NCBI GenBank assembly: GCA_051648945.1
Contig: JBOFGC010000414.1
Coordinates: 1 to 43,965, forward strand
Length of the DNA stretch: 43,965 bases
DNA from: Bacilli bacterium
GTDB taxonomy: Bacteria > Bacillota > Bacilli > JBOFGC01
Direction of reading: 5' to 3'
Part shown: in pieces, positions 5,831-21,780 of the stretch
Position numbering within the stretch: position 1 is the first letter of the stretch
How the letters are laid out: the number at the start of each line of letters is the position of its first letter
Program-made: the position numbers and the translations under genes
Notes under the pieces: model-generated
Seen by the model: only the letters and a program-made list of their open reading frames with translations
Told to the model about the DNA's origin: nothing
Database searches by the model: none

Positions 5831-5850
5831 GGGGCCGAAAGGCCCCTTTT
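5831..5850 (+). terminator. Rho-independent terminator after gp23 copy 3
   Basis: GGGGCC-GAAA-GGCCCC hairpin followed by TTTT. Confidence 0.8.
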
Positions 5851-5891
5851 CACTAAATACAATAAAGAAACAATATTTGAGGCAACGGATT

Positions 5892-6224
5892 ATGCAGCAA
5901 ATTATTAAAGATGCCAAGTGTGATCCTGCAACTGGTAAATCTATTATCCTATCATACACTGTTAATAGCAGAAAGACAAGGACGACTTCCATTCAAATGG
6001 TCTCAACAGCAGACCAATCCGGAGTCGACACTCATTGCATTGGGTGGCTACAAGGCTCAAACGACAACATCAACTGGTTTAATATCGCAAAATTAGAAAC
6101 ACAAGGTCAGGATATCCAATACGACGGCGGACCCTTCGAAGCGTTGTGGGAATCTATGATATTTCGACTAGAGCAAACCGAAAATGCAACAGTCGATGTA
6201 TTCATTACACAAAGGGAAGCATAA
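5892..6224 (+). CDS. Small conserved protein, paralogue A, partner of a collagen-like fibre; function unknown
   Basis: 110 aa when started at the ATG at 5892 (GAGG SD 9 nt upstream; the ORF track uses a TTG at 5877). It is clearly paralogous to 9964-10296 (..R.TS.QMV......D......Q.SN....WFN.A.LET.G...Q.DGGP.EALWE). Its stop lies 3 nt before the next ATG. Confidence 0.75.
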   Translation: MQQIIKDAKCDPATGKSIILSYTVNSRKTRTTSIQMVSTADQSGVDTHCIGWLQGSNDNINWFNIAKLETQGQDIQYDGGPFEALWESMIFRLEQTENATVDVFITQREA

Positions 6225-6227
6225 TAA

Positions 6228-7946
6228 ATGGAACTTAATTACGATGCTATTATTGCTCCTATGAGAGGAGATGGCGGAACACCTATCGGTCAAGGTCCAA
6301 AGGGAGATCAGGGACCCGCTGGCCCTATGGGTCCACAAGGCCCTAAAGGAGACCCAGGCGGCGGAGGTGGCGCTCAGGGACCAAAGGGAGACAAAGGCGA
6401 TAAAGGCGACACTGGAGATCAAGGTCCAATTGGACCAGTGGGCCCACAAGGTTCTAGGGGAGATACAGGCGCAATAGGGCCAATTGGACCACAAGGTCCA
6501 ATTGGAACTAACGGACCCGCTGGACCAAAAGGCGACAACGGAAACGACGGAGTTGACGGTATACAGGGTCCGAAGGGCGACACTGGAGATCAAGGTCCAA
6601 AAGGCGATAAGGGTGACACCGGAGATCGAGGTCCTAAGGGTGAGTTAGGTGATGCTGGGCCACAAGGACCCGATGCAACTATCGTTACTTTCAATCAATC
6701 TGGACAGATTAAAGAATCGTTTACTAATATCTCTGTTTTCAAATTTGAAAACGACATTCAAGATATAACGTTTGACCCAAATGATCAAAAGACCGTTCGA
6801 ATTCCATTGGGTATCCCTGTTGTTAGTGGAGTCGGTTCTACTCCTGACGAAATAAAAGCCAAACTAGATCAAACTTATTCTCCGTCTGATAGTCTTGGTA
6901 AAATTGCATACATCGCAACTGCTCAAGTACAAGAATGGTGGGCGTGCGATGGAGAGTGGAAGGGATTAGGAAAGATCACCGATTTATCTAAGTATGAAGC
7001 TCTTTATAAGCGTTTCCCGAATGACATCAATAATAACAAACCGTCAACTAATGACTATCTAGATGCTTCTAGTGAAAAGAGTCTAGGAACATATGTGATG
7101 CTTATTAATGCAACTGCCGAGCACACTCCGGTTAAGCAAAAGGCATACGTTCTACATTCTATCGGAAGTGGTTCTATTAAGTTTGGCTCACAGACGCTAT
7201 TCTGTCCAGAAGACGAAAAGACATATATTCGCCATTGGTGGAAAGATAACAATAAATGGTCCGATTGGGAAGAGATTCAAACTCAGTACAGCTCTTCATC
7301 TGGATATGCTACGTTTCCTATGGAGTATCAAGATACTCATTACAAAGAGTTGACCAACACTTTAGCAAACGAATCTGGAATCTTTAAAGCTTATTCTGAT
7401 AAAGTTGGATTGCCTGTTGGGGATAACGGATCGCTGATTGTGATGCGGCTGCACGATGGGGAAGAACATCAGACGTACATAACTGATAATAGGTTGTATC
7501 ATCGTGTTACTAGCCCATTAAATCCAACAAATTGGAATACTGTAGGTAGTGGAGGCGGATCTAGCAACGTTGAAAGCATTTTGGATCTCAGAGACACCCC
7601 GACTGCATTCGGAGAAACTGGTAGTTATCTCAGAGTCGATGATACACAGACCGAGATGATCTGGCATAAGCCTGCTGTGTCTAGTGCAGTATATAGCACA
7701 AATAATAACTCGGAAGACTGCGTAAGTTCTGATGCTTCAAAAGGAATTTCCGGTACATTCAGAGCGGTTCCGACTTCTATAGGGACTATGCCATCTCAGT
7801 TCACGGAAGATGGCATTATGCATATAATCTGCACGCAAGATTTAGAGATGCAACACTTCATCAACGAACAAGGATCTTGTTTCAGAAAAATAACGAACGG
7901 AATACCGACTCCTTGGTCTGCGGTTGGACTTCCGTTCGTGATCTGA
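6228..7946 (+). CDS. Collagen-like repeat fibre protein (572 aa)
   Basis: About 136 aa of uninterrupted G-X-Y triplets (aa ~14-150) followed by a ~420-aa globular region. The C-terminal region shares motifs with the 1288-aa protein (WWACDGEW / WFACDGEEW; NKWSDW / SKWNDW). Confidence 0.85.
   Translation: MELNYDAIIAPMRGDGGTPIGQGPKGDQGPAGPMGPQGPKGDPGGGGGAQGPKGDKGDKGDTGDQGPIGPVGPQGSRGDTGAIGPIGPQGPIGTNGPAGPKGDNGNDGVDGIQGPKGDTGDQGPKGDKGDTGDRGPKGELGDAGPQGPDATIVTFNQSGQIKESFTNISVFKFENDIQDITFDPNDQKTVRIPLGIPVVSGVGSTPDEIKAKLDQTYSPSDSLGKIAYIATAQVQEWWACDGEWKGLGKITDLSKYEALYKRFPNDINNNKPSTNDYLDASSEKSLGTYVMLINATAEHTPVKQKAYVLHSIGSGSIKFGSQTLFCPEDEKTYIRHWWKDNNKWSDWEEIQTQYSSSSGYATFPMEYQDTHYKELTNTLANESGIFKAYSDKVGLPVGDNGSLIVMRLHDGEEHQTYITDNRLYHRVTSPLNPTNWNTVGSGGGSSNVESILDLRDTPTAFGETGSYLRVDDTQTEMIWHKPAVSSAVYSTNNNSEDCVSSDASKGISGTFRAVPTSIGTMPSQFTEDGIMHIICTQDLEMQHFINEQGSCFRKITNGIPTPWSAVGLPFVI
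6267..6675 (+). repeat. G-X-Y (collagen) triplet-repeat coding tract
   Basis: Continuous GXY periodicity. It contains a perfect 25-bp direct repeat, GGCGACACTGGAGATCAAGGTCCAA, at 6405-6429 and 6585-6609, spaced 180 nt apart and in frame. Confidence 0.9.
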
Positions 7947-7962
7947 AATATTAAGTTACGGA

Positions 7963-9948
7963 ATGACTATGAAAAGAAATATTGGAACCCAAGGAAAATT
8001 TGCAGCAATTGATGCAACAGGAAGATCGATTGAGTTCGTCGATCTTCCCCTACAACCAATCGTTGATGACATTACGGCGTTGCAAGACGCCGATGTTCAG
8101 TTATCTTCTAGAGTTGATGGCGTAGAAACTAAGGTATCAGATTTAGAAAATAAACCGAACCCCGCTTATAAGTTCATTGAATTATCGGATACTCCTGGAG
8201 GTTATCAACCAGGAAAACTTGTTGGTTATAATCTATCCGGAGATGCGTTGATTGCGTATGAAAATCGAGATGAATTCTCTAAGCTAAAAGACACACCATC
8301 GACATACACCGGACAAGCTACGAAAGTTCTAACTGTGAAGACAGACGAATCTGGATTAGAATTTACCAACTATCCAAACGTAGGTCAAATCATTCCTAGA
8401 ATTGATGACTTGGAAACGAGAGCCACAGATCTTGAGAATACAACAATCGATCTTTCTACTACTGTTGATGATACCGTTAGTAGAGTTGATGTGCTTGAGA
8501 GAAAACCAGATCCGGAATATAGTTTCAATGATTTGACTGACACCCCTGGTGGATATCAACCTGGTCAGCTTATCGGATACAACTTAGCCGGCGATGCGCT
8601 CATGGCTTATGATAGGAGAGACGCATTAACAGATTTAACGGACACTCCTGACGCTTACTTGGGGCAATCGACTAAAGTGTTGACTGTCAAGACTGACGAA
8701 TCTGGACTTGAGTTTACCGATTATCCTCCGGTAGCTAATATTCAGGATCAATTGAATGACCATGGTTATCGTATAAACATCATCGAGCCAGATCTTTCCG
8801 ATGCGAGAATTAGAATAACTGCGCTAGAAACAAGCCCTACTACATTCAAAGATTTATCGGATACGCCTAGTGACTTTACAGGTCAAGCAAGAAAAACGCT
8901 AACCGTTAATGATTCCGAGGATGGATTTGAGTTTGCGCCGTTTCCTAATGTTGGCAATCTTGAATATCGAGTTGATCGAGTAGAAACCGATGTGACTGGG
9001 TTAAATGACAGAGCTGATACATTGGAAACGGATGTTTCCGCTTTGATTGATACAACAGATACAATCGAAACTGAGGTTGGTGTAATTGGGCCAGGACTTT
9101 TAAAACTTAATACTGACTTACTGTCTGGTAATCAGCCATTGAAGCACAAAAGTTTAGGTGCCGCATTGAGACTTACTGGTGCTGCTATATTTCCTATAGC
9201 CTTTGTTGCCGCTGCTCCTATTGTGTTTTCTAGTAGAACCGGAGACTCGACGATGGTTCTACCAAAAATAGTAGGAGAGGATTCTACTGTATTAGCTGCG
9301 GACGAAGTTAGAAATGGGACAATTATTAGAATTGTTAAAATTGGTACTGGGAAATTAACAATAACTCCTTCCGCAGGACACTTTATTAATAGGGCTAACG
9401 TCAACTATGACTCTCATATTGTTCCTCTAAATGAAATTCATACATTTATGTCAGGAACATATGCAAATGGTAATAAGTGCTGGATGTACGTCGAGGCTGA
9501 TAGTCATACGTATGATGACGAAATATCTCCAACAAAGCTAAAAGCCTCGATTGTTGGTTTATCGACTGGCGAAACTCCTATTGGAAATAGAGGAATATCT
9601 TCGGGAGTTATTGAAAGCACGTTCAACATGCAAGACTATAGTGTAGCTATGAACGATCATATTATTTGCAGGCATACCGGAACTGCCCAAGGTAGAGTTT
9701 TTATGCCAGAAATAGTAGATTATGATGTAGTGTCATTGACAAATACTCAGGTTAGAACTGGTCGAGTTACTAGAGTTTATAACTACGGAACTAACGAGAT
9801 TGCATTAAGAAACGGAAAGATCGTCGAAAAAGATGGTACTGAAAATAGTGATTATACGTTAGCTCCTGGTGAGTTCGTTGAACTTTTTCCTACTAGCGGA
9901 AGTAGCAACCCTCGTTGGATTTTGTTATTCAAGCAGACATGTCTATAA
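7963..9948 (+). CDS. Fibre-like structural protein with internal tandem repeats (661 aa)
   Basis: A 117-aa unit (KP.P.Y.F..L.DTPGGYQPG.L.GYNL.GDAL.AY..RD....L.DTP..Y.GQ.TKVLTVKTDESGLEFT.YP) occurs twice, plus a third partial copy. Heptad-like D/E/T-rich linkers separate the units. The alternative ATG at 7969 has the better SD. Confidence 0.8.
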   Translation: MTMKRNIGTQGKFAAIDATGRSIEFVDLPLQPIVDDITALQDADVQLSSRVDGVETKVSDLENKPNPAYKFIELSDTPGGYQPGKLVGYNLSGDALIAYENRDEFSKLKDTPSTYTGQATKVLTVKTDESGLEFTNYPNVGQIIPRIDDLETRATDLENTTIDLSTTVDDTVSRVDVLERKPDPEYSFNDLTDTPGGYQPGQLIGYNLAGDALMAYDRRDALTDLTDTPDAYLGQSTKVLTVKTDESGLEFTDYPPVANIQDQLNDHGYRINIIEPDLSDARIRITALETSPTTFKDLSDTPSDFTGQARKTLTVNDSEDGFEFAPFPNVGNLEYRVDRVETDVTGLNDRADTLETDVSALIDTTDTIETEVGVIGPGLLKLNTDLLSGNQPLKHKSLGAALRLTGAAIFPIAFVAAAPIVFSSRTGDSTMVLPKIVGEDSTVLAADEVRNGTIIRIVKIGTGKLTITPSAGHFINRANVNYDSHIVPLNEIHTFMSGTYANGNKCWMYVEADSHTYDDEISPTKLKASIVGLSTGETPIGNRGISSGVIESTFNMQDYSVAMNDHIICRHTGTAQGRVFMPEIVDYDVVSLTNTQVRTGRVTRVYNYGTNEIALRNGKIVEKDGTENSDYTLAPGEFVELFPTSGSSNPRWILLFKQTCL

Positions 9949-9951
9949 ATA
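9944..9951 (+). promoter_or_regulatory. T4-type late promoter TATAAATA
   Basis: Exact TATAAATA 12 nt upstream of the ATG at 9964, overlapping the stop codon of the preceding gene. Confidence 0.55.
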
Positions 9952-9963
9952 ATAGGAAATAGT

Positions 9964-10296
9964 ATGCAGAAAATTATCACAAACGCCAAAGTGATCAACG
10001 GGAATATTATATATTCCCCTGTTTTCTACACTGGTAGAGCTAAACGCACTTCCGTGCAGATGGTAGTAAACTCAACCTCTGCTCAAGATAGCGACGCTAA
10101 AGCTTACATTCAGGTCTCAAATAATGGAGAAGAGTGGTTCAATGTAGCTATTTTAGAAACCGACGGAACAGGATTACAAAAGGATGGTGGACCATACGAA
10201 GCGTTATGGGAATACACCAGAATATTAATAGAGAAAACTCCAGAACACGGCCCAGGAAGGGTAAACGTCTACGCAACGATAAGAGAGACGACATAA
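9964..10296 (+). CDS. Small conserved protein, paralogue B, partner of a collagen-like fibre
   Basis: 110 aa, paralogous to 5892-6224 and in the same position immediately upstream of a collagen-like fibre gene. Confidence 0.75.
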   Translation: MQKIITNAKVINGNIIYSPVFYTGRAKRTSVQMVVNSTSAQDSDAKAYIQVSNNGEEWFNVAILETDGTGLQKDGGPYEALWEYTRILIEKTPEHGPGRVNVYATIRETT

Positions 10297-10309
10297 CAAG
10301 GAATGAATA

Positions 10310-13300
10310 ATGAAATTAGATGAACGCTTTATTATCGCACCAATTCGTTCCAAGGGGGGCCAACCTGGCCCTATTGGTCCACAGGGGCCGAAAGGTGAGA
10401 ACGGTGTTGACGGATTGCCCCCAGAACATGAGTGGGATGCAACGAAATTAAAGTTCAAAAACCCAGATGGCACTTGGGGACAAGAAGTCGATCTGAAGGG
10501 AGAAAAGGGAGATTCTGGTGGCTCTGTACCAGGACAAACTTCAATTCAGGTTGAAGACCAATCAGGAAATAAGAACGATTTGTCTGTCGTAAAATATAAA
10601 TCAAACTCCGAATTTATTAAATACGATCCTTCTGATACATCGTTGTCTATCAATGCGCCAGAAAGAGTGTTTGATATTAAATGGTCGGTTGATAAAGTTT
10701 CAGATTTGCCTAATGGAACTACTGCAATCGCAGGGTCGCTTGCATACGCGTTGGAAACCTCAAAAACTTATCAGTATAACGGAACTGCTTGGTTAGAAGT
10801 TGATTTTGAACATCATCCAATTTCCGCTATCGATCTAGACAAGATTTTAACTCCCGGAAAATGGATAACCGAAAAACTATCAATTGGATCTACCAGTATT
10901 GTGCTGGATTCAAAAGAAACATTTTTGGGAATTTATGATACATTAGACGATCTTGAGAAATCAAAAGCCGATAAGATTGCTGGGCAAACTTTTGCAATCG
11001 TTAAGTGTGCTAGTTCGAATAGACAACTAGAAACCAATAAGATGTTTGTGTTCACCGGTATTTCGGGAGGAGTAGATCTGTGGTCTCCTATTGAAGTTAG
11101 TGGAAACTTAATTTTATCGACAACTGGAAACTCGGCAGCTATTGGTGAATTTAAGAGTATCACCGCTGGTGATAACGTTACCATCGACTATGATACAACT
11201 AACAAAAATATCACAATTAAGTCACTTGGTCCAGGTGCACCCACAGATCTATCTGAATATCTGAAAGGCTCTAATGTTAGGAGTAAATTCCCAGCTAGTG
11301 ATTGGCTTGAAATTTCTTGGGATAGTCTTGGAAAGATTCTTAATGTCGGCGTAAAGAAACCAGACTTCGATAAAATGAATGATATTCTCGTTGCTGGAAA
11401 TAACATTAGTTTCGAAAAAGATGCTAGTGGATTCTTGAAGATTAATGCCGAAGCTCACGTAGATTTGACGAATTATGTAATGGGCGCTTTGACCGAAGGT
11501 CAAAATGGAATCAAAACTAACTTCGACCAAGCTAACCAAAAATTAACTTTGGGATATGAACCAAAATATGCCGACTTGGATTTATTAGTTGAGGCCGGAA
11601 ATAACATTACATTAGAACAAGGAACTGGAGAAAAGGTAAAGGTTAGTGCTGTAATTCCTCCTCCGATTCCTGTTGACCTGAGTGAGTATGCCAAGAAGTC
11701 TAACATTAAAATTCCTCTAGACGACTGGGGAACGACCGATGTTGTTGGCGAAGAAGTGCAATTAAAGATTAAACCTACAGCAACTCAATTTGCGGACATG
11801 ATTACTTCGAATGGAGACACAATCGCTATTGTCAATGGAAATCAAGTAGACTTGAAGCACAAAGATATGCGAAAGAAGTTGTATAACATCCTCACTAAGA
11901 AGAGTACGCAAAACGAAGCAATCCTTCAAGCAGGAAATCACATTCATCTTGATACAAGTGACACCGATAAAACTATCACGATAGTTTCTACGGCTCGTGA
12001 GTATGATAGTGCGTCTGTTGATGTGGTTCTTCCGTTAACGTCAACTTGGGATTCGACAAAAGATCAGAAAACAATCGAGTTGAATCTTGCCGAGTTTGCT
12101 AACTTAACCGATGCTGGTCATAGTAATGTTAAAGTTGAATACGATGGCGCGTCGCATAAATTGAAATACAACGTTGACCGTTCTTTGATTCCTGTTGTTG
12201 CCATTCAGAAAGACGCAAGTGGAAACGAAGAAAGTTTGGGTGTGTTGCAAATCAATAACTCTGGTAACAACTTAGTAATACAAGATGATTCAGGTCACCC
12301 AGGCAAGAAGCGGGCAGTCTTGACTCTGCCAGACTTTCCAACTCAGTTGACCGGCGAGTTCGGAACAGATACTGGTCCACTGACTAAGTTAATTCTGAAA
12401 GGTGAAGTTACAGAACAAGTCGCCTTTGATACAGTCAAAAACGAAATGACTATCAATCTCGACAAGTCTTATTATGTTGGAAAGCATGCAGATCAATCGA
12501 ATCTTCCTACTACAGGAATTGCGAACAAGTCGTTCGGATTTATTGGGTCTGGGAATGGATATGACAACATCCTGATGCACGATGGTACCAATTGGACTGC
12601 CCAATATCCTGTTACTGGAATGTTAGCTGTTGAATCTGGTGCTACCCCAACTTATAAAGTTGTGAAGCAGATCAAGATGAATCCAGCGGTTACGATTGAT
12701 GCGAATGGTGAGTTAACAATCAATCAAGGCGGTTTACAGTTTGTTCACAATGGACAAACCGATGGACTAAACTCTCTTGAGGTTGCTGGAACTGGAGTTA
12801 CGGCAGATTTCGATTCCGGGACAGGAGCATTGAAACTGAACATCGTTGCTGGAGGTTCGGGAACTGTATCCCCTCTCAAGGTCAGCAAAAAGACTCAAGA
12901 TGGTAGCGTGACAGAATACGACGACACACGAGTGTTACTGTTCGACGGAGACGTTGAGGGTATCACGGTCGAAGACATCACGACTGGCGGAAAGAAAGTA
13001 ACCGTTCCTACAGGAATCATTGTAGAAACCGATACGGATGTTACACAGTTGACAACTAAGTACGTTCCTGCTAAGTACAAGGGCAAGTTTGTTTTCAACT
13101 ACAGCAACGACGCGACTAATCGTCGATGGTTCGCATGTGACGGCGAAGAGTGGTTCACGATAGGAAGCGAGAATTTAACAAAAAGCTTACAAGATATTCT
13201 ATCTCGTTTGCCTGCTCGTATTCCTAAGGGAACAAGCTTAGACACAATCAAAGACAAAACTGGTTGGACTTATTTCGGAGAAACTGTAACAGGTCTTCCT

Positions 13301-14176
13301 GAGTATACAAAACACGACGGTTCTAAGATTATCATGCCGGGTCATGTAATGAACTTAGTCGAAACCGACGATAAAGTACATCAATCCTTCTTCCCTATTG
13401 GGGAATTGCAGTATCCTATGTATAGAAGTTGGGATTCTGTTAACTCAAAATGGAACGATTGGTCAAATGGCGACAACGAGTTGAAGTTACACAATTCAGA
13501 CCCAGATGCTCACGAATTGTTAATATTGCCTGCTATTTCCGCAACAACTAAGTCAAATTGGTTTAGCTTATATGACGATCGGCCTAATGCTTCACGAAAG
13601 GGAAATCTCCCTATCATGTTACTCAGTGATAGTACAGGTAAAGCGGATGTTAACACAAATCCTACAGGAAACGATCTTTATTCGTTAAATGTTCCTAGAA
13701 CAGGCACATACAATATCAGATATGTGTTCCAGTTATCGGGCGTTGCTACTTCTCATGGAACATTAACGTTATCGATCATAAAAAATAACACAACTGTGAT
13801 CAAAACGGCAGTGCAGAGTATCTCCACGTCTGGACAAATGTTCGACGCGTATGAAACTATGGCGACTGATATTCCATTGGCAGTTAATGATGCTATATCA
13901 TTTAAAGTTGAATATACAGGTTCTTCCACATGGACAGAGGATTTCCAGAAGAAATCTGCTCGAATTGATCCTATGAAAAATTATTTCGTTCTGGAACACA
14001 AAGATACGAAATCCGCAAGTCATATTGCCAACACATTCAGAACTGTTCTTGGTGGTCTAGCTATCACGAAAGGATACGAAGCGTTTGTTATGGCAGGAGA
14101 TGCGCAAGGGTCAGCTCCTCAGTTCGTTGAGGTTGTTGGTTCTATCTATAACGAAAATGTAGTTGTGATTAAATAA
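10310..14176 (+). CDS. Large fibre protein with a short N-terminal collagen-like segment (1288 aa)
   Basis: GXY segment at aa 15-38 (GGQPGPIGPQGPKGENGVDGLPP). Recurrent fibre-type motifs AG(N/D)N(I/V)(T/S).. appear (GDNVTIDYD, AGNNISFEKD, AGNNITLEQG, AGNHIHLDTS). Its C-terminal motifs are shared with the 572-aa protein. Confidence 0.85.
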   Translation: MKLDERFIIAPIRSKGGQPGPIGPQGPKGENGVDGLPPEHEWDATKLKFKNPDGTWGQEVDLKGEKGDSGGSVPGQTSIQVEDQSGNKNDLSVVKYKSNSEFIKYDPSDTSLSINAPERVFDIKWSVDKVSDLPNGTTAIAGSLAYALETSKTYQYNGTAWLEVDFEHHPISAIDLDKILTPGKWITEKLSIGSTSIVLDSKETFLGIYDTLDDLEKSKADKIAGQTFAIVKCASSNRQLETNKMFVFTGISGGVDLWSPIEVSGNLILSTTGNSAAIGEFKSITAGDNVTIDYDTTNKNITIKSLGPGAPTDLSEYLKGSNVRSKFPASDWLEISWDSLGKILNVGVKKPDFDKMNDILVAGNNISFEKDASGFLKINAEAHVDLTNYVMGALTEGQNGIKTNFDQANQKLTLGYEPKYADLDLLVEAGNNITLEQGTGEKVKVSAVIPPPIPVDLSEYAKKSNIKIPLDDWGTTDVVGEEVQLKIKPTATQFADMITSNGDTIAIVNGNQVDLKHKDMRKKLYNILTKKSTQNEAILQAGNHIHLDTSDTDKTITIVSTAREYDSASVDVVLPLTSTWDSTKDQKTIELNLAEFANLTDAGHSNVKVEYDGASHKLKYNVDRSLIPVVAIQKDASGNEESLGVLQINNSGNNLVIQDDSGHPGKKRAVLTLPDFPTQLTGEFGTDTGPLTKLILKGEVTEQVAFDTVKNEMTINLDKSYYVGKHADQSNLPTTGIANKSFGFIGSGNGYDNILMHDGTNWTAQYPVTGMLAVESGATPTYKVVKQIKMNPAVTIDANGELTINQGGLQFVHNGQTDGLNSLEVAGTGVTADFDSGTGALKLNIVAGGSGTVSPLKVSKKTQDGSVTEYDDTRVLLFDGDVEGITVEDITTGGKKVTVPTGIIVETDTDVTQLTTKYVPAKYKGKFVFNYSNDATNRRWFACDGEEWFTIGSENLTKSLQDILSRLPARIPKGTSLDTIKDKTGWTYFGETVTGLPEYTKHDGSKIIMPGHVMNLVETDDKVHQSFFPIGELQYPMYRSWDSVNSKWNDWSNGDNELKLHNSDPDAHELLILPAISATTKSNWFSLYDDRPNASRKGNLPIMLLSDSTGKADVNTNPTGNDLYSLNVPRTGTYNIRYVFQLSGVATSHGTLTLSIIKNNTTVIKTAVQSISTSGQMFDAYETMATDIPLAVNDAISFKVEYTGSSTWTEDFQKKSARIDPMKNYFVLEHKDTKSASHIANTFRTVLGGLAITKGYEAFVMAGDAQGSAPQFVEVVGSIYNENVVVIK

Positions 14177-14193
14177 TAAGGGCCTTCGGGTCC

Positions 14194-14201
14194 TATAAAA
14201 A
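14194..14201 (+). promoter_or_regulatory. Late-promoter-like box TATAAAAA
   Basis: 7/8 match to TATAAATA, directly after a weak GGGCC-TTCG-GGTCC hairpin (14180-14193) and 10 nt upstream of the ATG at 14212. Confidence 0.3.
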
Positions 14202-14211
14202 GGATTTTAAA

Positions 14212-14730
14212 ATGGCACAAAGACCTATCCCAATGCCTATTCTATCGCCATTCTACAACAGAGCGGTGATGGATGTTCATCTAAATAATTATGATATTGT
14301 TTATATCAAACCAATAGAAGATAAACTCGATGCAATTAAGCCTGTTGTTTTTGTTAAGTCGGATTTATCTGAGGTAGAAGTTCAAAAAATAAAGATTAGC
14401 GATCGGTCAAAAGCAACATATGATCCATTAGATAAATCACTTACATTGAATCTCGACACCAGTCCAGTAGGCGCGCTGAAATTTACAGACTTAATCGGTG
14501 TACCTAACTCTTATCCGAAAGACACAGATCTGAAAACAGGACATGCCGGAGTCACCGGCGCGGATGAAACATCCATGGTTCTGGTAGCAAAGAGTGATGG
14601 TATATATTTCGTTAACCATCCAGTCGGATCTGAGATTGAGCCTAGAAAATCGAGATCAAAACAGCAACAACAAGATATCATTGAGTCGCTGGAAGCGCGT
14701 ATATCTTTTCTAGAAAGCAAATTAAAATGA
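14212..14730 (+). CDS. Hypothetical structural protein (172 aa) with a C-terminal coiled-coil
   Basis: Good SD (AAGGA) and location within the fibre cluster. The C-terminus QQQQDIIESLEARISFLESKLK looks like a coiled-coil. I recognise no family for it. Confidence 0.6.
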   Translation: MAQRPIPMPILSPFYNRAVMDVHLNNYDIVYIKPIEDKLDAIKPVVFVKSDLSEVEVQKIKISDRSKATYDPLDKSLTLNLDTSPVGALKFTDLIGVPNSYPKDTDLKTGHAGVTGADETSMVLVAKSDGIYFVNHPVGSEIEPRKSRSKQQQQDIIESLEARISFLESKLK

Positions 14731-14746
14731 TAAGGATTTTCGTTTT

Positions 14747-16339
14747 ATGAGTACACCTCCGTTAATTAATTCGGGAATGATTCTATTTGATCCAAATCCA
14801 AATGGAACAGGTCCGATATTACCTCCTGGCCGACAAACTTGGCTAAATCAAAAAATATTAGATATCGATAAAGAGATTAAAGATCTAGAAGCGAGTGGAG
14901 TGAAGCCCGGAAAGGATGGGCATACCGTAGAGATGAAAATCGACGACTTTCCGGTAGACACTTCTATTCCTCCAGATCAAAGAAAGCCTGCAATTGTTTG
15001 GCGACTTGCTGCGCAACCAGGAGAGTCTGAATATACATGGAATCTACTTGTATATCGTGAAGATTTAATGGGGCCAAATGGTCCAGCGGGTCCAGCGGGT
15101 CCTCAAGGTCCTATGGGCGCACCAGGAAAGGATGGAGTCGGAGTAAACTTTCACGCGAGTGTTAGATACGAGGCAGATCTAGCAAAGACTCCTTCGGTAG
15201 TTGGCGATGCAATCCTTGTGACCGGGTCTGGTGACTTGTGGGTACTGACTACACTTCCATATAACAAAAAATCTAACTGGAAAAATCTTGGACACATCCA
15301 GGGACCTGCTGGACCTAGAGGATATACTGGTCCTAGAGGATACACTGGTCCACAAGGTCCCGCCGGAGGAGGCGGAATAGGTCAATTTATTCTACAGTGG
15401 ATTGTCGACTCCGCGACATCAGCGGCAATTTCTGCGGTGACATCCACTGTGATGGCGGAAATGACAGCAGCATTAGATACGTTGACTAATCAGTTAATGA
15501 GCGTAATGGAATCCACAGCCGAGAACGTCGTACAAGAAGCTCTAGATAAAGCGTGGGATGAACTCAAAGGCGATAAAGGCGAAAAGGGTGATAAAGGCGA
15601 CAACGGAAAGGACGGAAAGTCCGTTAAACTGGTAGGAAAATTCGCGTCTAAAGCCCAATTTATGGCAAAGTATCCGTTATTAACTGATAACGTAGGTGTT
15701 GCTGGATTATGTGGTGACGACCCGATGAAACCCAAAGAGTTATGGGCTATCACTCAAGATTCATCGGGAGTATTTCCTTATCCTCCTACATATACCAATC
15801 TTGGAGATATTCGGGGTCCTAAGGGAGAAGCGGCTCGATGGGAAATCTCAGTTCGAGATACTGCATTTACCGAAAAGATTAAAGTTGTTGTCGACTCAGA
15901 CATTGACCCTTCTGTTGCTAGTATGTACGTTAGAGACACGGATTCTATCGTATGCGAAGGACTCCACGGAAGTCAAATCGACCCGACTCAAGTTGGTCTA
16001 CGCTTTTCAATGAGACATCCAATTCCTAGACCCGCAAAGAAAGATGACCCATCTGGAAAGCCATCAACTGTAGATAAAGTGTTATCGAACGACGGCGAAA
16101 AATTAATCTGGATCGAAGCTCCGGAAGGCGGAAAGAAGTCAAAGGAAGAAATTTTACTCAAAGCTCCAGACCAAACCGTCTGGTCGATTACTGTTGATGA
16201 TTACGGTCGGTTGCATCAGAATCTTTCTACCGAAGCATCCGATAACACAGCAGAGAAACTCCAAGCCCCCAATGGAGGAGTTTACAATTTACATGTTGAC
16301 AATGAAGGCCAATTGCATGTAACAAAATCGATTTCATAA
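14747..16339 (+). CDS. Collagen-like repeat protein with three separate GXY segments (530 aa)
   Basis: GXY runs at aa 109-132, 186-210 and 274-291 (nt 15071-15142, 15302-15376, 15566-15619). A hydrophobic or helical segment lies between runs 2 and 3. Confidence 0.8.
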   Translation: MSTPPLINSGMILFDPNPNGTGPILPPGRQTWLNQKILDIDKEIKDLEASGVKPGKDGHTVEMKIDDFPVDTSIPPDQRKPAIVWRLAAQPGESEYTWNLLVYREDLMGPNGPAGPAGPQGPMGAPGKDGVGVNFHASVRYEADLAKTPSVVGDAILVTGSGDLWVLTTLPYNKKSNWKNLGHIQGPAGPRGYTGPRGYTGPQGPAGGGGIGQFILQWIVDSATSAAISAVTSTVMAEMTAALDTLTNQLMSVMESTAENVVQEALDKAWDELKGDKGEKGDKGDNGKDGKSVKLVGKFASKAQFMAKYPLLTDNVGVAGLCGDDPMKPKELWAITQDSSGVFPYPPTYTNLGDIRGPKGEAARWEISVRDTAFTEKIKVVVDSDIDPSVASMYVRDTDSIVCEGLHGSQIDPTQVGLRFSMRHPIPRPAKKDDPSGKPSTVDKVLSNDGEKLIWIEAPEGGKKSKEEILLKAPDQTVWSITVDDYGRLHQNLSTEASDNTAEKLQAPNGGVYNLHVDNEGQLHVTKSIS

Positions 16340-16353
16340 CAAGGAAGTAGCTA

Positions 16354-18177
16354 ATGCCTATTGTTAATAACAGAAGTTTCGTTTATCAAGAAACTCCTAA
16401 TGATTATAGTGATATCAAACAAACGATCAAGGGTCAGCAAATGCTGACTCTTAAAAAGTTCCAGGGTCAATCTCCAACATCAGGAGAAAGTCCTGACTAT
16501 TACGGACAAATCGGGGCGGGTAGTAAGCCTGATGGTTCTCCTACAGTTTGGATTTCAAACGCTGGTCCAAACTCAGTAAACGGATGGGATCAGATTTCAA
16601 CCGGACCTTATAGTGATGAGTTTGCGAATAAAGATAAAGCTAATAACTTTTCTAATCTTAGTCAAACTATTTTGAATAAGCAGATTCCTTATGTGGACCA
16701 AGGTTATATTTCTGTTGATCACGTGCCTATTAAAGGTCAAGGTCATATCTACATCGACGCATCCGTTGTAGACCAACCGCGAGTGCATATCGCTATGGTT
16801 GCAACAGGTGGTGGGTATCAGTGGGTTCAAATTACAGACCACACCGAACTCGATAATATCGCTATGAAAAACACACAGAACAACTTTAAGGATGGAAGAC
16901 AAACTATTATTAATCAGTCTATCGCGTCTATTAATCCTAGTCTTAGTAAGCCGCTAGCTCCTGTTCGTTCAGGCGAGATGTTCTTGAAGAAGGGCGATTC
17001 GACTAAAGGAGAAAAACCTGCGCTTTGGATCTCAACATCCACAGCAACAGGCGCGTTTGAATGGGTTCCAGTTTCGGCTTCGTTGGATCAAGATATCGTT
17101 TATAGAAACGTCAAGAATAACTTCACTGAGTTTAATCAAACTATAGTGGGTAAACAAATCATGTCGTTTGCCTCTAGAGGAGATCAACCGCCATCTGGAT
17201 ATAAGCCGGATTATGATGGTCAGATGTATATCGCGTTCAAAACACTATCGACCGGAACAAAAGACGCGGCCGTTTGGGTAGCAAATGGAAATACGTGGGT
17301 TCCTTTATCCGCAAACTTAGACCCATCAAAAGTTGCAATGAAGGATAAAGAGAATGAATTCACGAACGCGAGTCAGACTATCAAAACTGGAACCGAGTCT
17401 AGTCAGATTACTGGTGCTAGAATTAAATTGGGTGACCAATCCCCAATTGCGGATAGTTCCTATAAAGCTACTATGTTAGGTGAAGTCTGCGTTTATAAAA
17501 ACGATTCCGTCGTTCCTTCTGAAATCTCGGTGTGGTTAGCTATTAGCATTAATCCTAGTCCAACAACAAACGCCGGCGAGTGGACGATGATTTATTCTTC
17601 CAAGATGGATTATACCAAAATGGCAAGAACAGATTTGGGCAACACGTTCGAAAAAGGCCAAAGGATTATTGGAGCCACAAATAAACCTCAGGATGTGGTG
17701 ACTGCTAGATTCGAATATGATGACACTCCTAAAAACAAATACAGAGCACTGAACGTTGGAGAGTTGTTTATTACAGATCAGGAGCAGCCTGGAGGAGCTC
17801 CCGATGAGATTGATGTTTGGATGGCACATAAACCCAACGACCCGTCGTCGTGGGTGAAAATATACGATAAACCAATTGATAAAATTGTTCGTTCTAACGA
17901 AGAAACTTTCTTCACCGACAAATTGTTCTTGGGTGCACCTAGTAACACAAAGAGACTCAGAATAAATGGCGCAAGAGAAGCAAAAGGAACGGTTTATAAC
18001 ACCACGATGCCTTTGCAACTGGGAGAAACTGTGATGTGTGAAGTTGTTGAAGGAAGCAAAACATATATCGTAATCTATATGTGTGCTATGGATCAGAGTT
18101 CAACTCCAGAAGGACAAAAGTCAAGAAAGAATTGGATTGAGATTGGAAGAAGATTAAAATCCGAACTCGTTCATTAA
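16354..18177 (+). CDS. Repeat-array structural protein (607 aa, about 7 units of ~85 aa)
   Basis: Repeated unit: ..(K/R).(x)NNF(T/S)..(Q)TI.G.qi ... PDY.GQ.Y ... .(V/L)W(I/V) ... W..(I/L/V)(S/Y). It is paralogous to the next ORF and has an AAGGAAG SD. Confidence 0.8.
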   Translation: MPIVNNRSFVYQETPNDYSDIKQTIKGQQMLTLKKFQGQSPTSGESPDYYGQIGAGSKPDGSPTVWISNAGPNSVNGWDQISTGPYSDEFANKDKANNFSNLSQTILNKQIPYVDQGYISVDHVPIKGQGHIYIDASVVDQPRVHIAMVATGGGYQWVQITDHTELDNIAMKNTQNNFKDGRQTIINQSIASINPSLSKPLAPVRSGEMFLKKGDSTKGEKPALWISTSTATGAFEWVPVSASLDQDIVYRNVKNNFTEFNQTIVGKQIMSFASRGDQPPSGYKPDYDGQMYIAFKTLSTGTKDAAVWVANGNTWVPLSANLDPSKVAMKDKENEFTNASQTIKTGTESSQITGARIKLGDQSPIADSSYKATMLGEVCVYKNDSVVPSEISVWLAISINPSPTTNAGEWTMIYSSKMDYTKMARTDLGNTFEKGQRIIGATNKPQDVVTARFEYDDTPKNKYRALNVGELFITDQEQPGGAPDEIDVWMAHKPNDPSSWVKIYDKPIDKIVRSNEETFFTDKLFLGAPSNTKRLRINGAREAKGTVYNTTMPLQLGETVMCEVVEGSKTYIVIYMCAMDQSSTPEGQKSRKNWIEIGRRLKSELVH

Positions 18178-18194
18178 TGGTTAAAGGAATAATC

Positions 18195-19697
18195 ATGCCA
18201 TACGATAAGAGTGTTGTTTATAGAGAGACTCCTAATAATTTCACAGACGTCCATCAGATGATGGGCGGTTCTCAAATTGTCTCTATTAAAATATTTGCTG
18301 GACCAGGACCAGATAAAAGTCCCGATTATTTGGGACAACTTGGAATGCATATGAAAAACGACGGTAGCGTTGTTTTATGGGTTTCTAGAATGTTTAAAGG
18401 GTATCTGGACTGGGATATTGTCTCCAGTCCAACCGATCTACCACTTCCAGATAACGCGGTTAGAGAGGATTCGGATAATGAATTTAGTGTGTATGAGCAA
18501 AAGATTCAAGGTTCTCAGATCGCATCGGTGACTCACGGAACACATGCCGCGGACAAGGAACCTATTAAAGGGGAGGGTCATATCTACGTCCGAGATAATG
18601 AATACACTCCAGAGGTGTATGTTGCGTTTAACAAATCATCCGGGTTGGATTGGACCAGAGTTGCGAATCACGAGATACTAGATAGTATTGTTTATAGAGA
18701 TTTATCGAACAACTTCACAGACGATGCACAGACTATCAATGGAGTTCCGATTGGTACAGTATCGACCAGTATACTAGACCCAGTTGCTTCCAAAATTGAA
18801 CCTGCTCGTTCTGGTGAGATTTGGATTCAATCTAGCAAGGCAACTACCACTAGATTCCCTCGTATGTGGATATCGAAGGACCTGTCGATTCCAGACGTAT
18901 CCCACTGGGAAGAGATTAGTTCTTCTGCTGGAGGAGTTCCAGCTAACGTAGCTATAACAGATAAGCCTAATAATTTCACAAATCTAAAACAAGAGATCAA
19001 CGGCAAGCGAGTTCTATCGTTCGTGGATGGAGGAGATAAAACTCCAGAGCAATCTAAGTTATCCGCGGATTACGACGGTCAGTTGTATGTAGCAGTAAGA
19101 GGAGATGACCCTGCGATCTGGATCGCAAAAGGAAATAAGTGGCTGCCTATTCTTTCTAACGTTGTTGTGACGAATAGAGTCAATCGATTCGTTCCTCTTC
19201 AAGAAATGGGAACAGGTAACCGAGTTGTTAGAATCATCGGCGCAAGTCAAGGAACTGTTAATCCACTGAGTGTAAATTTAGTTCCGTTAACAGATGGTGA
19301 AATCTACGTACAGACTATCGACCATCCGACCGGTGGATTTGATAGAAATGTTTGGGTAGCTGCCGAAGGCGGAGACACGACATCTTGGATGAAGGTGTTT
19401 GATGATAAGAATCACACGATAGCAAGAACTAACGAAACTAACCATTTCGAAAATAAAGTTCAATATCTTGGATACGAATCTGATTTGTCTAAAGAGTCTA
19501 TCGTGGGAGCTAGACAATATAATCTCGACAATCCTACATCATCTGATAGTCCCAACAACTATACTCCTCACAGAACAGGAGAAATCATCGTTCTTCAAGA
19601 AGAAGAACAAGGAGAGATGTTCTGGGTTACATACATGGGAATAGTACAAGGAAATAAAAAAGCATGGACTGAACTCAGTCATGTTAAAATTCCGTAA
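18195..19697 (+). CDS. Repeat-array structural protein, paralogue (about 500 aa, about 6 units)
   Basis: MPYDKSVVYRETPNNFTD aligns with MPIVNNRSFVYQETPNDYSD of the previous ORF, and the same repeat unit is used. The ATG at 18195 has an AAAGGA SD. The track start at 18177 forms a TAATG overlap and cannot be excluded. Confidence 0.8.
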   Translation: MPYDKSVVYRETPNNFTDVHQMMGGSQIVSIKIFAGPGPDKSPDYLGQLGMHMKNDGSVVLWVSRMFKGYLDWDIVSSPTDLPLPDNAVREDSDNEFSVYEQKIQGSQIASVTHGTHAADKEPIKGEGHIYVRDNEYTPEVYVAFNKSSGLDWTRVANHEILDSIVYRDLSNNFTDDAQTINGVPIGTVSTSILDPVASKIEPARSGEIWIQSSKATTTRFPRMWISKDLSIPDVSHWEEISSSAGGVPANVAITDKPNNFTNLKQEINGKRVLSFVDGGDKTPEQSKLSADYDGQLYVAVRGDDPAIWIAKGNKWLPILSNVVVTNRVNRFVPLQEMGTGNRVVRIIGASQGTVNPLSVNLVPLTDGEIYVQTIDHPTGGFDRNVWVAAEGGDTTSWMKVFDDKNHTIARTNETNHFENKVQYLGYESDLSKESIVGARQYNLDNPTSSDSPNNYTPHRTGEIIVLQEEEQGEMFWVTYMGIVQGNKKAWTELSHVKIP

Positions 19698-19700
19698 AAT

Positions 19701-19726
19701 AAAAAAGGAGCCTTCGGGCTCCTTTT
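19701..19726. terminator. Bidirectional rho-independent terminator
   Basis: AAAAAA-GGAGCC-TTCG-GGCTCC-TTTT between convergent genes. Confidence 0.85.
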
Positions 19727-19736: not shown

Positions 19737-20489
19737 TTAAGATCCTGTAAACGGACCAAATACTTTAATAGGCACACCTTTGCATGTTTTCGTGTCGATC
19801 TGATGTCTATATCCATTTCGACTATCGGTAGCGATTAAACTTGTTGTGCCAAAGAACAATGCCAGTAAAGGAATTGTTACAGGATTTTTTAGCAACTCGG
19901 TCTGAAACGCGACTGGTGTATCTGCGTTGTTTCCTGCTAAAATCTCATTTGCGGCATCGATTGCATCCCAACGAACATGAGCATAAGACAACCCATGAAA
20001 CTCAATCCATTGTGCCTTATATAAAGTATCTGGATTGAAGCCGACAGGAATAACATTCACTGCAACATCGACTTCACCGGACTCGGTTTCCGTGCTGTCT
20101 GTTTCTGTTACTTTGCACTTATACTTTCCAGCGTCGCTTGCCGCGCATTTGTCAATCACTAGACGTTGTGTTGTTTGTCCTGCAATTGCGTTGCCGTCCT
20201 TTGTCCAAGAATAAGTGACGGTTTCCGGATCAGGAATGTCTTCTAGTTTCGCATAAAGTGCGATCTCCGCTCCTACAATCGTGTTGACGCTGGCTGGCTC
20301 AATCGTCACCACTTTCGCACGAGGAATAATAGAGCGCATGTTCAGTTGAGAACTCATTTCTGAAACCATATTATCGATAGTTTTTGATGTGATGTTAACA
20401 CCTAACTCTTCTGCGTATTCTTTCATCGCAACCTTGGCTTTGGCTGTCGATAATAATTTAATTTGTTCAATCCTTTGTAAATCAATCAT
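19737..20489 (-). CDS. Ig-like (I-set type) domain protein, possible Hoc-like capsid decoration protein
   Basis: The central segment TYSWTKDGNAIAGQTTQRLVIDKCAASDAGKYKCKVTE is a classic Ig I-set signature (W..., DxGxYxC). It sits next to gene 24, as hoc does in T4, and has an exact late promoter 34 nt upstream. The capsid-decoration role is inferred. Confidence 0.6.
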   Translation of the reverse strand: MIDLQRIEQIKLLSTAKAKVAMKEYAEELGVNITSKTIDNMVSEMSSQLNMRSIIPRAKVVTIEPASVNTIVGAEIALYAKLEDIPDPETVTYSWTKDGNAIAGQTTQRLVIDKCAASDAGKYKCKVTETDSTETESGEVDVAVNVIPVGFNPDTLYKAQWIEFHGLSYAHVRWDAIDAANEILAGNNADTPVAFQTELLKNPVTIPLLALFFGTTSLIATDSRNGYRHQIDTKTCKGVPIKVFGPFTGS

Positions 20490-20531: not shown

Positions 20532-20556
20532 ACACCTAATAATGGGACCTTTAACA

Positions 20557-21780
20557 ATGTCTAATATTCTTAACGAGTTGATCCAAGAATCGACTGTATC
20601 TGCCAATATCGACTTAGGACGTCCACAGTTACTTGCATTGACTCGCGCGGTCAACGAGTTGATTTATACGGACTTAGTTGCTATTCAAAAAACAAAAACA
20701 CCAATCGCCACCCTTCTAGGTATGCGCTATAAGAACAGAGATGGAGAGATGACATTCCGTACTCCTGCAACGTATGGCGGCTTGTACGGAGACAGAAGTA
20801 AGGTTACGTTGGAACTATCATCAAATCTTTTATCTTTCGCAAAAGATGACGTGTTCAAATATCAAAGTGTTGTATATCAAGCAATCGAAGCTGTTAATTT
20901 GCAAGATCTTGGCGGCGGCGACGACATTGATAAACAACTAGCACTTGCTTTGATGATAAATAAAGTTCGTATCATGTCGGACGCAGGCGAAACTGGAACA
21001 ATGGAATACATTGAGCCTTCTGAGTCTATGTTAACAATCAACCGTTGGAAAATCGAAGCTAAGACAAGAAAGTTGAAATCTGAAGTATCTCACGAATTCA
21101 TTCAAGACTTAAAAGCAAATGGCCTGGACGCTGATAACGTGATCAGACAAATGCTGGCACATGAGATCGCAGATGAAATAAATAGAGATGTTATGCAGAA
21201 ATTGCAGACTGTATCCATTCGTCATGTTTCTCCAACAACTGCTTCTGGCATTTATTTCGCTGGCGGATCGACTGATGACCCTATCAAAGGTCGTACACTG
21301 TACCGTATTGTTGCTGAAATGGCAAGACAATTGCAGTCAGAAACGTCGTTTGATGCAACTTATGTTCTTTGTTCACCTAGAGTTGCAGGATTACTGACAT
21401 CATCTGGATGGTTGAAGGGCGATCCTACAATGCGTAGATTGTATGCAGGAACGTTAACAGATGGTCTGAAAGTTTATGTAGATACTGTGTCTAGATTTGA
21501 TTATCTGGTAGTAGGAACAAAACAAACGATGGACGAACTGGAATCTATCGGTTCTCTATTCTACACTCCTTACGTCGAACAAGACGATGTAGGATTTACG
21601 ATTGTAAATAGTCCAGAAGATTTACAACCTCGTTATATGTGTATGGCTCGTTATGGATTATCCGTTAACCCATACACAACATCAACAGAAAATGAACAAA
21701 TCAACGCCGGTGATAACTGGAACGAATTGGCTGGTAAGTCAAAGTACAGTCGTTTCGTCGGTGTAGTGTTCGGTAGTTAA
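20557..21780 (+). CDS. 24: Capsid vertex protein (T4 gp24 homologue)
   Basis: MSNILNELIQEST...GRPQLLALTRA...LIY.D.VA.Q.T..P aligns with the T4 gp24 N-terminus (MAKINELLREST..GRPNLVALTRA). Further matches include INRWK.EAK.RKLK, LYRIV.EM, SGWLK and RYGLSVNPYT. The track start at 20542 lacks an SD. Confidence 0.9.
   Translation: MSNILNELIQESTVSANIDLGRPQLLALTRAVNELIYTDLVAIQKTKTPIATLLGMRYKNRDGEMTFRTPATYGGLYGDRSKVTLELSSNLLSFAKDDVFKYQSVVYQAIEAVNLQDLGGGDDIDKQLALALMINKVRIMSDAGETGTMEYIEPSESMLTINRWKIEAKTRKLKSEVSHEFIQDLKANGLDADNVIRQMLAHEIADEINRDVMQKLQTVSIRHVSPTTASGIYFAGGSTDDPIKGRTLYRIVAEMARQLQSETSFDATYVLCSPRVAGLLTSSGWLKGDPTMRRLYAGTLTDGLKVYVDTVSRFDYLVVGTKQTMDELESIGSLFYTPYVEQDDVGFTIVNSPEDLQPRYMCMARYGLSVNPYTTSTENEQINAGDNWNELAGKSKYSRFVGVVFGS

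Follow-up and report, generated by a model that had tools for sequence, protein, structure and literature searches.

We analysed a contig of 43,965 bp from a T4-like myovirus that is uncultured (JBOFGC010000414.1; the whole stretch is called the window here), in which a cluster of fibre-type genes lies between the genes encoding major capsid protein gp23 and vertex protein gp24. The contig carries the label 'Bacilli bacterium', which almost certainly reflects a phage contig mis-binned into a bacterial metagenome-assembled genome (MAG). Relatives of the window bear the MAG labels Plesiomonas, Aeromonas veronii and Cetobacterium, suggesting a fish-gut setting and an Aeromonas- or Plesiomonas-type host. 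The window gp23 is at best about 55–60% identical to that of any cultured phage, and a megablast search with the whole cluster found no match among 50,697 phage records. As the original prediction had described, nine plus-strand genes separate the last gp23 copy from a Hoc-like gene and gp24. These consecutive open reading frames (ORFs), here A to I, fill exactly positions 5892–19697 (13.8 kb), with gaps of -1 to 35 nucleotides (nt); A starts 69 nt past the third gp23 copy, and the start codon of I overlaps the stop codon of H. The encoded proteins, with lengths in amino acids (aa), are as follows.

5892–6224, plus strand: A, 110-aa all-beta small protein, paralogue of D (39% identity, E-value 5e-20), phrog_16217
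6228–7946, plus strand: B, 572-aa collagen-like fibre with N-terminal motif MELNYDAIIAPMRGDGG and G-X-Y triplets at residues 23–149
7963–9948, plus strand: C, 661-aa fibre with five DTP units (at 76, 110, 193, 227 and 300), coiled-coil segments and a C-terminal globular domain
9964–10296, plus strand: D, 110-aa small beta protein, paralogue of A; homologues of 65–70% identity precede every E homologue in relatives
10310–14176, plus strand: E, 1288-aa fibre with N-terminal motif MKLDERFIIAPIRSKGG, G-X-Y triplets at 17–37 and a conserved C-terminal domain of ~330 aa
14212–14730, plus strand: F, 172-aa protein with one DTP-type unit and a C-terminal coiled coil; 52% identity in contig L001
14747–16339, plus strand: G, 530-aa protein with G-X-Y triplets at 109–132, 186–212 and 275–292, a central helical segment and a C-terminal tandem motif
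16354–18177, plus strand: H, 607-aa array of about seven small beta domains joined by N-(N/x)-F-x3-Q-x-I motifs
18177–19697, plus strand: I, 506-aa paralogue of H (32% identity, E-value 1e-66); 70% identity in a relative

The G-X-Y, DTP, AGNN and H/I repeat-array features noted earlier were all found on checking, and the inventory built on them required one correction: only B, E and G carry G-X-Y triplets, and E is itself the 1288-aa protein that had been listed as a separate fibre. Only B exceeds the Pfam Collagen (PF01391) cut-off of 27.2 bits, scoring 55.9 bits with about 42 triplets. G has three runs of 6–9 triplets and falls below the cut-off at 22.9 bits, while E has a single run of seven triplets and no Pfam Collagen match. 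E also contains four AG(N/D)(N/H)(I/V) (AGNN-type) units, the repeat units of H and I measure about 71–96 aa, and F, the ninth gene, is neither collagen-like nor a partner protein of the A/D type. The following transcription signals accompany the genes.

5831–5859, plus strand: hairpin GGGGCCGAAAGGCCCC followed by a TAAATA box, in intergenic sequence upstream of A; same arrangement as between the gp23 copies
9944–9951, plus strand: perfect T4-type late promoter box TATAAATA, 13 nt upstream of D
14180–14201, plus strand: UUCG-loop hairpin (14180–14193) followed by a late-promoter-like box TATAAAAA (14194–14201), upstream of F
19703–19726, strandless: palindromic GC-rich hairpin with A/T runs on both sides, likely a bidirectional terminator

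The hairpin at 19703–19726 likely closes both the plus-strand unit and the convergent Hoc/Inh-like gene beyond it. With late boxes or hairpins before A, D and F and a terminator after I, the cluster divides into three late sub-operons, A-B-C, D-E and F-G-H-I, and it is on these same signals that we read A to I as late genes. The reading of their products as fibres draws on the collagen runs, DTP repeats and coiled coils, on the PHROG tail-fibre families matched by B, C, E and G, and on the fibre proteins matched by the model of H described below. Fibre hallmarks, late-type signals and capsid-gene flanks together bear out the earlier view of fibre-type genes lying within the head module, and mark these as late genes.

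A-B(-C) and D-E are paralogous units, each of a small beta protein and a fibre: A resembles D, and B and E have a common N-terminus and one common globular region, that of B being partly homologous to E residues 863–1124 (hhalign probability for E against B, 97%). Every T4-like relative has B and C as a single fusion protein (1155–1609 aa), which suggests that B and C together form one fibre, with C as its distal half. C matches phrog_11660, a 'tail protein' family (E-value 1e-20), as well as coiled-coil Pfam fragments, and E residues 30–121 match tail-fibre segments of phage ICP2 and N4-like podoviruses. Against cultured phages, tblastn with C, G, H and the globular part of B gave no match and E gave only short N-terminal matches; sequence searches of the PDB with C, E and H yielded nothing meaningful.

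A and D belong to a family with no assigned function, phrog_16217, which is matched at 3.9e-5 by A, at 5.4e-6 by D and at 3.4e-20 by the homologue in phage JK32. It is a rare family: clustering at 50% identity leaves just 17 clusters in a set of 1.84 billion representatives, its members are nearly all stand-alone proteins of about 100–110 aa, and a word-indexed search with D returned only four close homologues. The AlphaFold2 (AF2) model of D is an all-beta sandwich with a predicted local distance difference test (pLDDT) score of 65; it matched no PDB fold with an E-value below 1, a weak negative given the low confidence of the model. No hit to the F5/8 type C domain (PF00754) was obtained with A, D or the JK32 and 44RR homologues, and the homologue in phage Orisa scored 18.8 bits (E-value 0.0018), below the cut-off of 28.2. 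The A/D profile does match P0027, a protein of seven F5/8-type-C (discoidin) domains, at 1.3e-11, and hhalign aligned the family with F5/8-type-C repeats at a probability of 92.6% (E-value 4.5e-7) over only 46 of 111 columns, a stretch that spans the (G/V)SNDG-x2-W core. We regard a minimal discoidin/galactose-binding-like sandwich as the probable, rather than established, fold of A/D. A relationship of A/D to Soc or Hoc was rejected, as no similarity was found.

The partners of the A/D proteins begin alike: their first 10–15 residues fit M-x-L-x3-A-(I/V)-I, and a Gly/Ser-rich stretch comes next. This motif is present in B, E, the B-C fusions, a 572-aa protein of JK32, 44RR ORF163w and a lipase of Orisa; every protein that bears it follows an A/D homologue, so that motif and upstream A/D gene always co-occur. 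The E-like proteins of SU10-like podovirus contigs, considered below, have neither the motif nor an A/D gene. This co-occurrence and joint absence suggest that A/D handles the N-terminus of its partner, as an adaptor or assembly factor.

F is the counterpart of the N-terminal part of C-like proteins in SU10-like phages: its residues 51–135 match residues 30–108 of a 977-aa protein (contig L002) and its residues 84–147 match residues 63–120 of a 694-aa protein (L010), both of which also contain segments homologous to C. G is 73% identical in a T4-like relative and 44% identical over its full length (1–529) in a SU10-like podovirus. For H, no match was found in Pfam, PHROG, PDB or INPHARED, an exact look-up found nothing, and IMG/VR, scanned with H and with E as single proteins, yielded no close relatives; a set of 5.8 billion proteins contains only 16 relatives of H. 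Modelled with AF2, H resembles beads on a string (pLDDT 60, predicted template modelling score 0.21), and its Foldseek matches include models of phage 'tail/tail fibre' proteins (PhiPA3, 3.9e-11). A marginal Foldseek match to beta-propeller lectins (probability 0.16) is a hint only.

The order of the cluster (A-like, B-C, D, E, F, G, H, I, gp24) is kept in seven contigs (L001, L011–L013 and L016–L018) representing at least four distinct related T4-like phages, and this recurrence indicates that A to I are not chance ORFs. In the relative compared gene by gene (L001), cluster proteins are 48–73% identical to those of the window. L001 is one end of ERR5094873_108, a 64-kb contig that has about 25 syntenic backbone orthologues of window genes (36–72% identity). 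Identities are 67–73% for G, H and I, 69% for gp24 and 72% for UvsW, against 48% for E, 52% for F and 39–48% for ligase, dda, pseT and rnlA. By this pattern G, H and I behave as constrained structural parts, and E, F, B and C as variable ones. As a separate observation, rnlA (42471–43622, compared with L022 10001–11125) reaches just 39% identity between the two phages, against about 70% for G, H, I, gp24 and UvsW; this reflects either fast evolution of rnlA or an exchange of the head region between backbones. A recent foreign insertion of the cluster was rejected on base composition, its GC content (0.38–0.47) being equal to that of the remaining window.

About 30 kb from the cluster, ERR5094873_108 carries a tail-fibre locus that is divergent from rnh and beside dsbA, gp33 and gp59. 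The gp34 encoded there (1170 aa) is 37% identical to JK32 gp34 over 963 residues (E-value 3e-180) and matches phrog_972 with an E-value of 0; a gp35-type connector matches phrog_1154 (7e-40). Synteny, to which the original prediction had looked for tail-fibre genes elsewhere, thus places gp34 and a gp35-like gene beside rnh on a contig that also bears the cluster. The cluster itself sits between gp23 and gp24 and not next to rnh, a slot that holds gp34 and gp35 in the syntenic relative, and none of A to I matches the gp34–37 PHROG families (phrog_972, phrog_1154 and related families). Within the window there is no gp34–38, and a gp35 alignment run against GTDB genomes to locate the tail-fibre locus of the window's own MAG found nothing; going by synteny, the window contig probably stops a few kilobases, about 6 kb, before rnh and the gp34/gp35 locus.

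Smaller modules related to the cluster occur in cultured phages. The A/D family matches 21 cultured phage records, RB49 not being among them. In Aeromonas phages 44RR2.8t and 31, a 95-aa A/D homologue directly follows gp23 and is itself followed by a 288-aa protein starting MILNPKAVLNN...SGSSG and then by gp24. In six Krischvirus-type phages (JK32, Brandy and others), an A/D homologue likewise directly follows gp23, and the next gene encodes a 572-aa protein starting MKLNPDAVINAGSVGGG, the C-terminal 300 residues of which are homologous to the C-terminal domain of E (hhalign probability for the JK32 protein 91%, E-value 9e-7); two coiled-coil proteins, fibre-like in JK32, come next. These interval genes (ORF162w/163w in 44RR2.8t and 31; in Krischvirus, JK32_00159–00163 of Shigella phage JK32 and those of phages Brandy and G2248) are annotated as hypothetical, and a literature search found no paper on the gp23–gp24 interval genes of RB49-like or Aeromonas phages and no reported function. 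As in the window, the A/D homologue after gp23 is followed by a partner with the same motif, and the module coexists with tail fibres, since JK32 and 44RR2.8t have complete gp34–37 loci elsewhere in the genome. The modules of the cultured phages span 1.2–5 kb and consist of one unit without a collagen stalk, DTP fibre or F-G-H-I, whereas in the window two units are joined by a cassette of four genes (13.8 kb in all), and gp23 is present in three copies. The earlier description of the 23–24 interval as nearly empty in T4 therefore does not extend to these phages, and the cluster has a partial precedent: the unit on which it is founded, A/D plus motif partner, already stands directly after gp23 in cultured phages.

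In Aeromonas phage 25 (L007 3050–3469), ORF153w is a truncated N-terminal part of an A/D homologue lying between gp23 and gp24, and ORF154w is a C-terminal remnant of the A/D partner; decay to such remnants suggests that the A/D-partner unit is dispensable. In the four small Pseudomonas myoviruses Orisa and Orimi, the A/D homologue is found after the lysis genes, among spike-like genes. There, in Orisa01 (L020 8926–13916), A/D is followed by a GDSL-type lipase/esterase (N-terminus MELGVGAFQSGSG) and a 134-aa protein, both with an N-terminus similar to that of the other partners, and then by a collagen-like protein and a 627-aa protein whose sequence looks like that of a putative beta-helix tailspike. 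This context indicates that the two-gene unit is portable beyond T4-like phages.

The distant relatives of H belong to SU10/7-11-like podovirus contigs (L002–L004, L010 and L015). The order in these phages is two or three capsid-gene copies, E-like, C/F-like, G, H, conserved small genes, an SU10-type adaptor and the usual tail fibre, and in three of the contigs (L002, L010 and L015) the G-H cassette is immediately after the capsid genes. Over full length, G is 44% and H 32% identical to the window proteins, and the C-terminal domain of E is homologous to the C-terminal parts of 859/866-aa proteins of these contigs. In the cultured relatives Aeromonas phage APT65 and Salmonella phage 7-11, the post-capsid slot holds no more than two or three small genes. 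Between T4-like myoviruses and SU10/7-11-like podoviruses, G and H travel as one cassette. Conserved from the first residue across both, they probably bind other members of the cassette rather than a lineage-specific virion site; the E-like and C/F-like proteins, whose N-termini are lineage-specific, would supply the likely anchors through those N-termini. Overall, the cluster expands the little-known gp23–gp24 interval module and joins it to a cassette common with podoviruses.

Tandem capsid genes are routine in the SU10/7-11-like podoviruses, with two to four copies, some with C-terminal Ig (Big_1) domains (L002 1–2839; L015 78–3016; APT65, L008 6243–10437; 7-11, L009 5631–8407), and parallel the triple gp23 of the window. 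Between its capsid and adaptor genes, L015 (IMG/VR, 124.9 kb) encodes two proteins with LamG lectin domains (11919–14402 and 16153–18321), one of which also has a sub-threshold sialate O-acetylesterase-like (SASA) match.

Among known systems, the Vibrio phages phiSt2 and phiGrn1 are KVP40-like relatives of T4, and gp12 of phage SPP1 is a tiny protein (about 64 aa, with eight G-X-Y triplets) whose gene adjoins the capsid gene. Head fibres have been observed on phiSt2 and phiGrn1, and capsid fibres are documented on phage 7-7-1 (PMC12796354). SPP1 gp12 binds to the surface of the capsid as a collagen-like trimer (PMC7602432). It shares the collagen motif with the cluster but lacks both distal domains and a partner protein. 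Our literature search on head fibres of T4-like phages found no paper on genes of the cluster type. The original prediction's remark that collagen-stalked head fibres are unfamiliar in T4-like phages is therefore to be tempered, in that a collagen capsid binder is known from SPP1 and head fibres are known on phiSt2 and phiGrn1.

The gp8.5 head fibre of phi29 is encoded immediately after the major capsid protein gene and is a dispensable accessory trimer thought to aid adsorption (PMC7602432, PMC9509320); it has an Ig-like base and a helix-turn-helix supercoil, and no collagen. SU10 gp10, encoded in the post-capsid slot, is predicted to resemble the N-domain of the phi29 head fibre and the epsilon15 minor capsid protein (PMC9509320), but was not seen on the capsid. 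The cluster has the same position immediately after a capsid gene, although no sequence or fold similarity of its proteins to phi29 gp8.5 or SU10 gp10 was detected. T4 Hoc, an elongated adhesin encoded near gp24 (PMC9958956), and Soc are, like the cluster, non-essential head-module accessory proteins. Hoc is a monomeric string of Ig domains, and the window has a separate Hoc/Inh-like gene at 19737–20489. The T4 gp34–37 proteins resemble the cluster proteins as long multi-subunit fibres with repeat-rich shafts and differ from them in genomic position, with no homology found and with the true gp34/gp35 located elsewhere in the lineage.

We favour the reading that the cluster encodes late accessory virion fibres or adhesins that are additional to the gp34–37 long tail fibres, with a lean towards attachment at the capsid. 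Taken whole, this statement falls a little short of an even chance in our judgement, whereas its narrower part, that the virion bears these as accessory fibres on top of its long tail fibres, is likely. The additional character follows from the co-occurrence of the cluster with gp34/gp35 on ERR5094873_108 and of the A/D unit with gp34–37 in JK32 and 44RR2.8t. As for where such fibres sit, it is not the gp34 site; the capsid surface is the single most likely place, tentatively put, the neck or tail comes second as a serious possibility, and no virion association at all is the least likely and an improbable outcome.

In the mechanism we propose, A/D would dock or assemble the N-terminal peptide of its partner, the remainder of which would carry a variable distal binding domain on a stalk of collagen triple helix, DTP repeats and coiled coils; the fibres would be trimeric. 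F-G-H-I would be a second kind of unit, in which G provides a collagen/coiled-coil stalk and H and I provide arrays of small beta domains. The role envisaged is a reversible first contact with host surface glycans, probably those of Aeromonas or Plesiomonas-like bacteria, or with the gut environment, which might raise the encounter rate before the tail fibres engage.

The lean towards the head comes from the post-capsid position in two unrelated groups (T4-like phages, including Biquartavirus and Krischvirus with the smaller A/D-partner unit, and SU10-like phages), from the same slot encoding the phi29 head fibre and SU10 gp10, from the collagen capsid binder of SPP1 and the capsid fibres of 7-7-1, phiSt2 and phiGrn1, and from the gp34 site being already occupied. 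Several points weigh against our favoured reading. No capsid-binding, Ig, Hoc-like, Soc-like or decoration-family domain was recognised in A to I with Pfam and PHROG, and all annotated relatives, by sequence or fold, are called tail or tail-fibre proteins. The AF2 models of D and H are of low confidence (pLDDT 60–65) and uninformative on location, and the discoidin link of A/D consists of 46 aligned columns and one sub-threshold Pfam match. The Orisa/Orimi unit is not beside a capsid gene, the esterase and lectin-domain proteins of L015 are typical of tail spikes, and the SU10-like post-capsid slot is also immediately upstream of adaptor and tail-fibre genes, which makes the synteny ambiguous. 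Finally, gp34/gp35 were found in a relative with a backbone only about 50% identical and not in the window's own genome. The head-fibre idea nevertheless withstands refutation by a relocated tail-fibre locus and is plausible, if unproven.

Extra tail, baseplate or collar fibres, that is, second and third receptor-binding sets that widen host range, as multi-fibre myoviruses have, and whose post-capsid position is incidental, form a credible alternative, although we do not rate it as probable. It agrees with the tail or tail-fibre annotation of the PHROG and BFVD relatives and with the match of E residues 30–121 to tail fibres of ICP2 and N4-like podoviruses, but fibres of this sort mostly owe their 'tail' label to inference and not to measurement. 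The tail-spike-like LamG and SASA-type (sub-threshold) proteins in the L015 cassette, the Orisa unit with spike-like genes after baseplate and lysis genes, and the place of the SU10-like cassette directly upstream of adaptor and tail-fibre genes also suit it, while the recurrence of the post-capsid position in two unrelated phage groups does not. T4-type docking sites are already used by gp34 and gp12, with no new baseplate adaptor visible in the cluster, and the conservation of G and H runs over their full length from a myovirus to podoviruses, although the tails of the two have no docking partner in common. The slow evolution of G, H and I is also unlike that of typical receptor-binding tips.

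That the sole long-tail-fibre locus was relocated into the head module is a very improbable explanation and already largely refuted. E, at 1288 aa, is about the size of T4 gp34, and the window itself lacks gp34–38; yet we rejected this explanation on ERR5094873_108, where the cluster and a true gp34/gp35 locus beside rnh share one contig, and the lack of any match of A to I to the gp34–37 families and the coexistence of homologous A/D-partner units with gp34–37 in JK32 and 44RR2.8t also speak against it. It is quite unlikely, too, that the products are non-virion proteins from a mobile cassette, such as late, lysis-released or cell-associated glycan binders or enzymes acting as matrix or mucus binders or superinfection blockers. 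The dispensability of the unit (truncated remnants in phage 25, RB49 not among the 21 matching records), the Orisa partner being a GDSL-type lipase/esterase encoded after the lysis genes, and the resemblance of A/D to a carbohydrate-binding fold would fit such a role. Long stalks of collagen, coiled coil and repeats are typical of particle-borne fibres, however, the cluster stands between essential head genes and behind gp23-type late signals, and G, H and I show core-like conservation; nor were signal peptides or lysis-related domains noticed, although no dedicated predictor was run.

A more specific version of the favoured capsid-borne reading, which we hold to be somewhat doubtful, is a modular head-fibre coat on the T4-like phage and, in parallel, on SU10/7-11-like podoviruses. 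In this version a discoidin-like A/D on the gp23 lattice would capture the N-terminal peptide of collagen-stalked fibres, the portable G-H(-I) cassette would add lectin-like bead arrays, and the three gp23 surface variants could give distinct docking lattices. Such a coat would amount to a capsid-display adhesion system exchangeable between unrelated capsid lineages.

If capsid-borne, the cluster would give the T4 superfamily its first multi-protein head-fibre system with a genetic definition; adhesion modules of the head surface would then be shown to pass between myoviruses and podoviruses, and the finding would bear on host finding or mucus sticking by gut phages and on the engineering of T4-type capsid display. 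If the products are extra tail fibres, the analysis would still define a rare two-gene unit, A/D plus motif partner, coupled to effectors as varied as fibres and an esterase, and a G-H cassette for which 5.8 billion proteins offer hardly any relatives. The cultured carriers make the head-or-tail question testable, and tractable phages such as 44RR2.8t, 31, JK32 and Brandy would in either case allow the function of the gp23–gp24 interval to be tested.

The cluster is flanked by further head genes.

803–2452, 2533–4128 and 4194–5822, plus strand: three tandem gp23 (major capsid protein) paralogues, 66–73% mutual identity
19737–20489, minus strand: Hoc/Inh-like gene, Inh-like N-terminus and one Ig domain (Pfam Ig_3, Ig_2 and I-set; PHROG Hoc-like 1e-11, Inh 1e-7)
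20542–21780, plus strand: gp24 vertex protein (phrog_138, E-value 9.5e-101), with its own TATAAATA box at 20503

From its start the window reads gp22, the three gp23 paralogues, A to I on the plus strand, the convergent Hoc/Inh-like Ig gene and gp24, followed by DprA-like, HD-domain, inh, glutathionylspermidine synthase, uvsW, uvsY, Tsx-like porin and methyltransferase genes, and ends with ligase, cd, pseT, dda and rnlA. The gp23 paralogues differ mostly in roughly residues 150–250, the surface insertion-domain region in T4 gp23; copies 1 and 3 have an extra insertion of ~13 aa there. A GAAA-loop hairpin and a TAAATA late-promoter-like box follow every gp23 copy, and the contigs of all related T4-like phages break at the gp23 region, which fits a repeated gene. 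The Hoc/Inh-like protein looks like a chimera, in which an Inh-like N-terminus is combined with one Ig domain and a C-terminal region. Full inh is encoded separately, 3 kb downstream (23682–24377, minus strand), and the sets of Inh/Hoc-like paralogues at the Hoc/Inh-like locus vary among relatives.

Genes for a DprA-like protein, an HD-domain phosphohydrolase and glutathionylspermidine synthase (22251–25943, minus strand) lie between gp24 and uvsW. In T4 the baseplate-hub genes 25–54 are located between uvsY and gene 30; they are absent from the uvsY–ligase interval of the window (27130–35168), where uvsY (30774–31196) is followed by the Tsx-like gene, the methyltransferase gene and ligase, and dda stands between pseT and rnlA. 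The Tsx-family nucleoside channel gene (31616–32413, minus strand; Pfam Channel_Tsx, 2.7e-28) is 59% identical in a relative (L022 19803–20561), and such an outer-membrane porin gene is unusual for a lytic T4-like phage.

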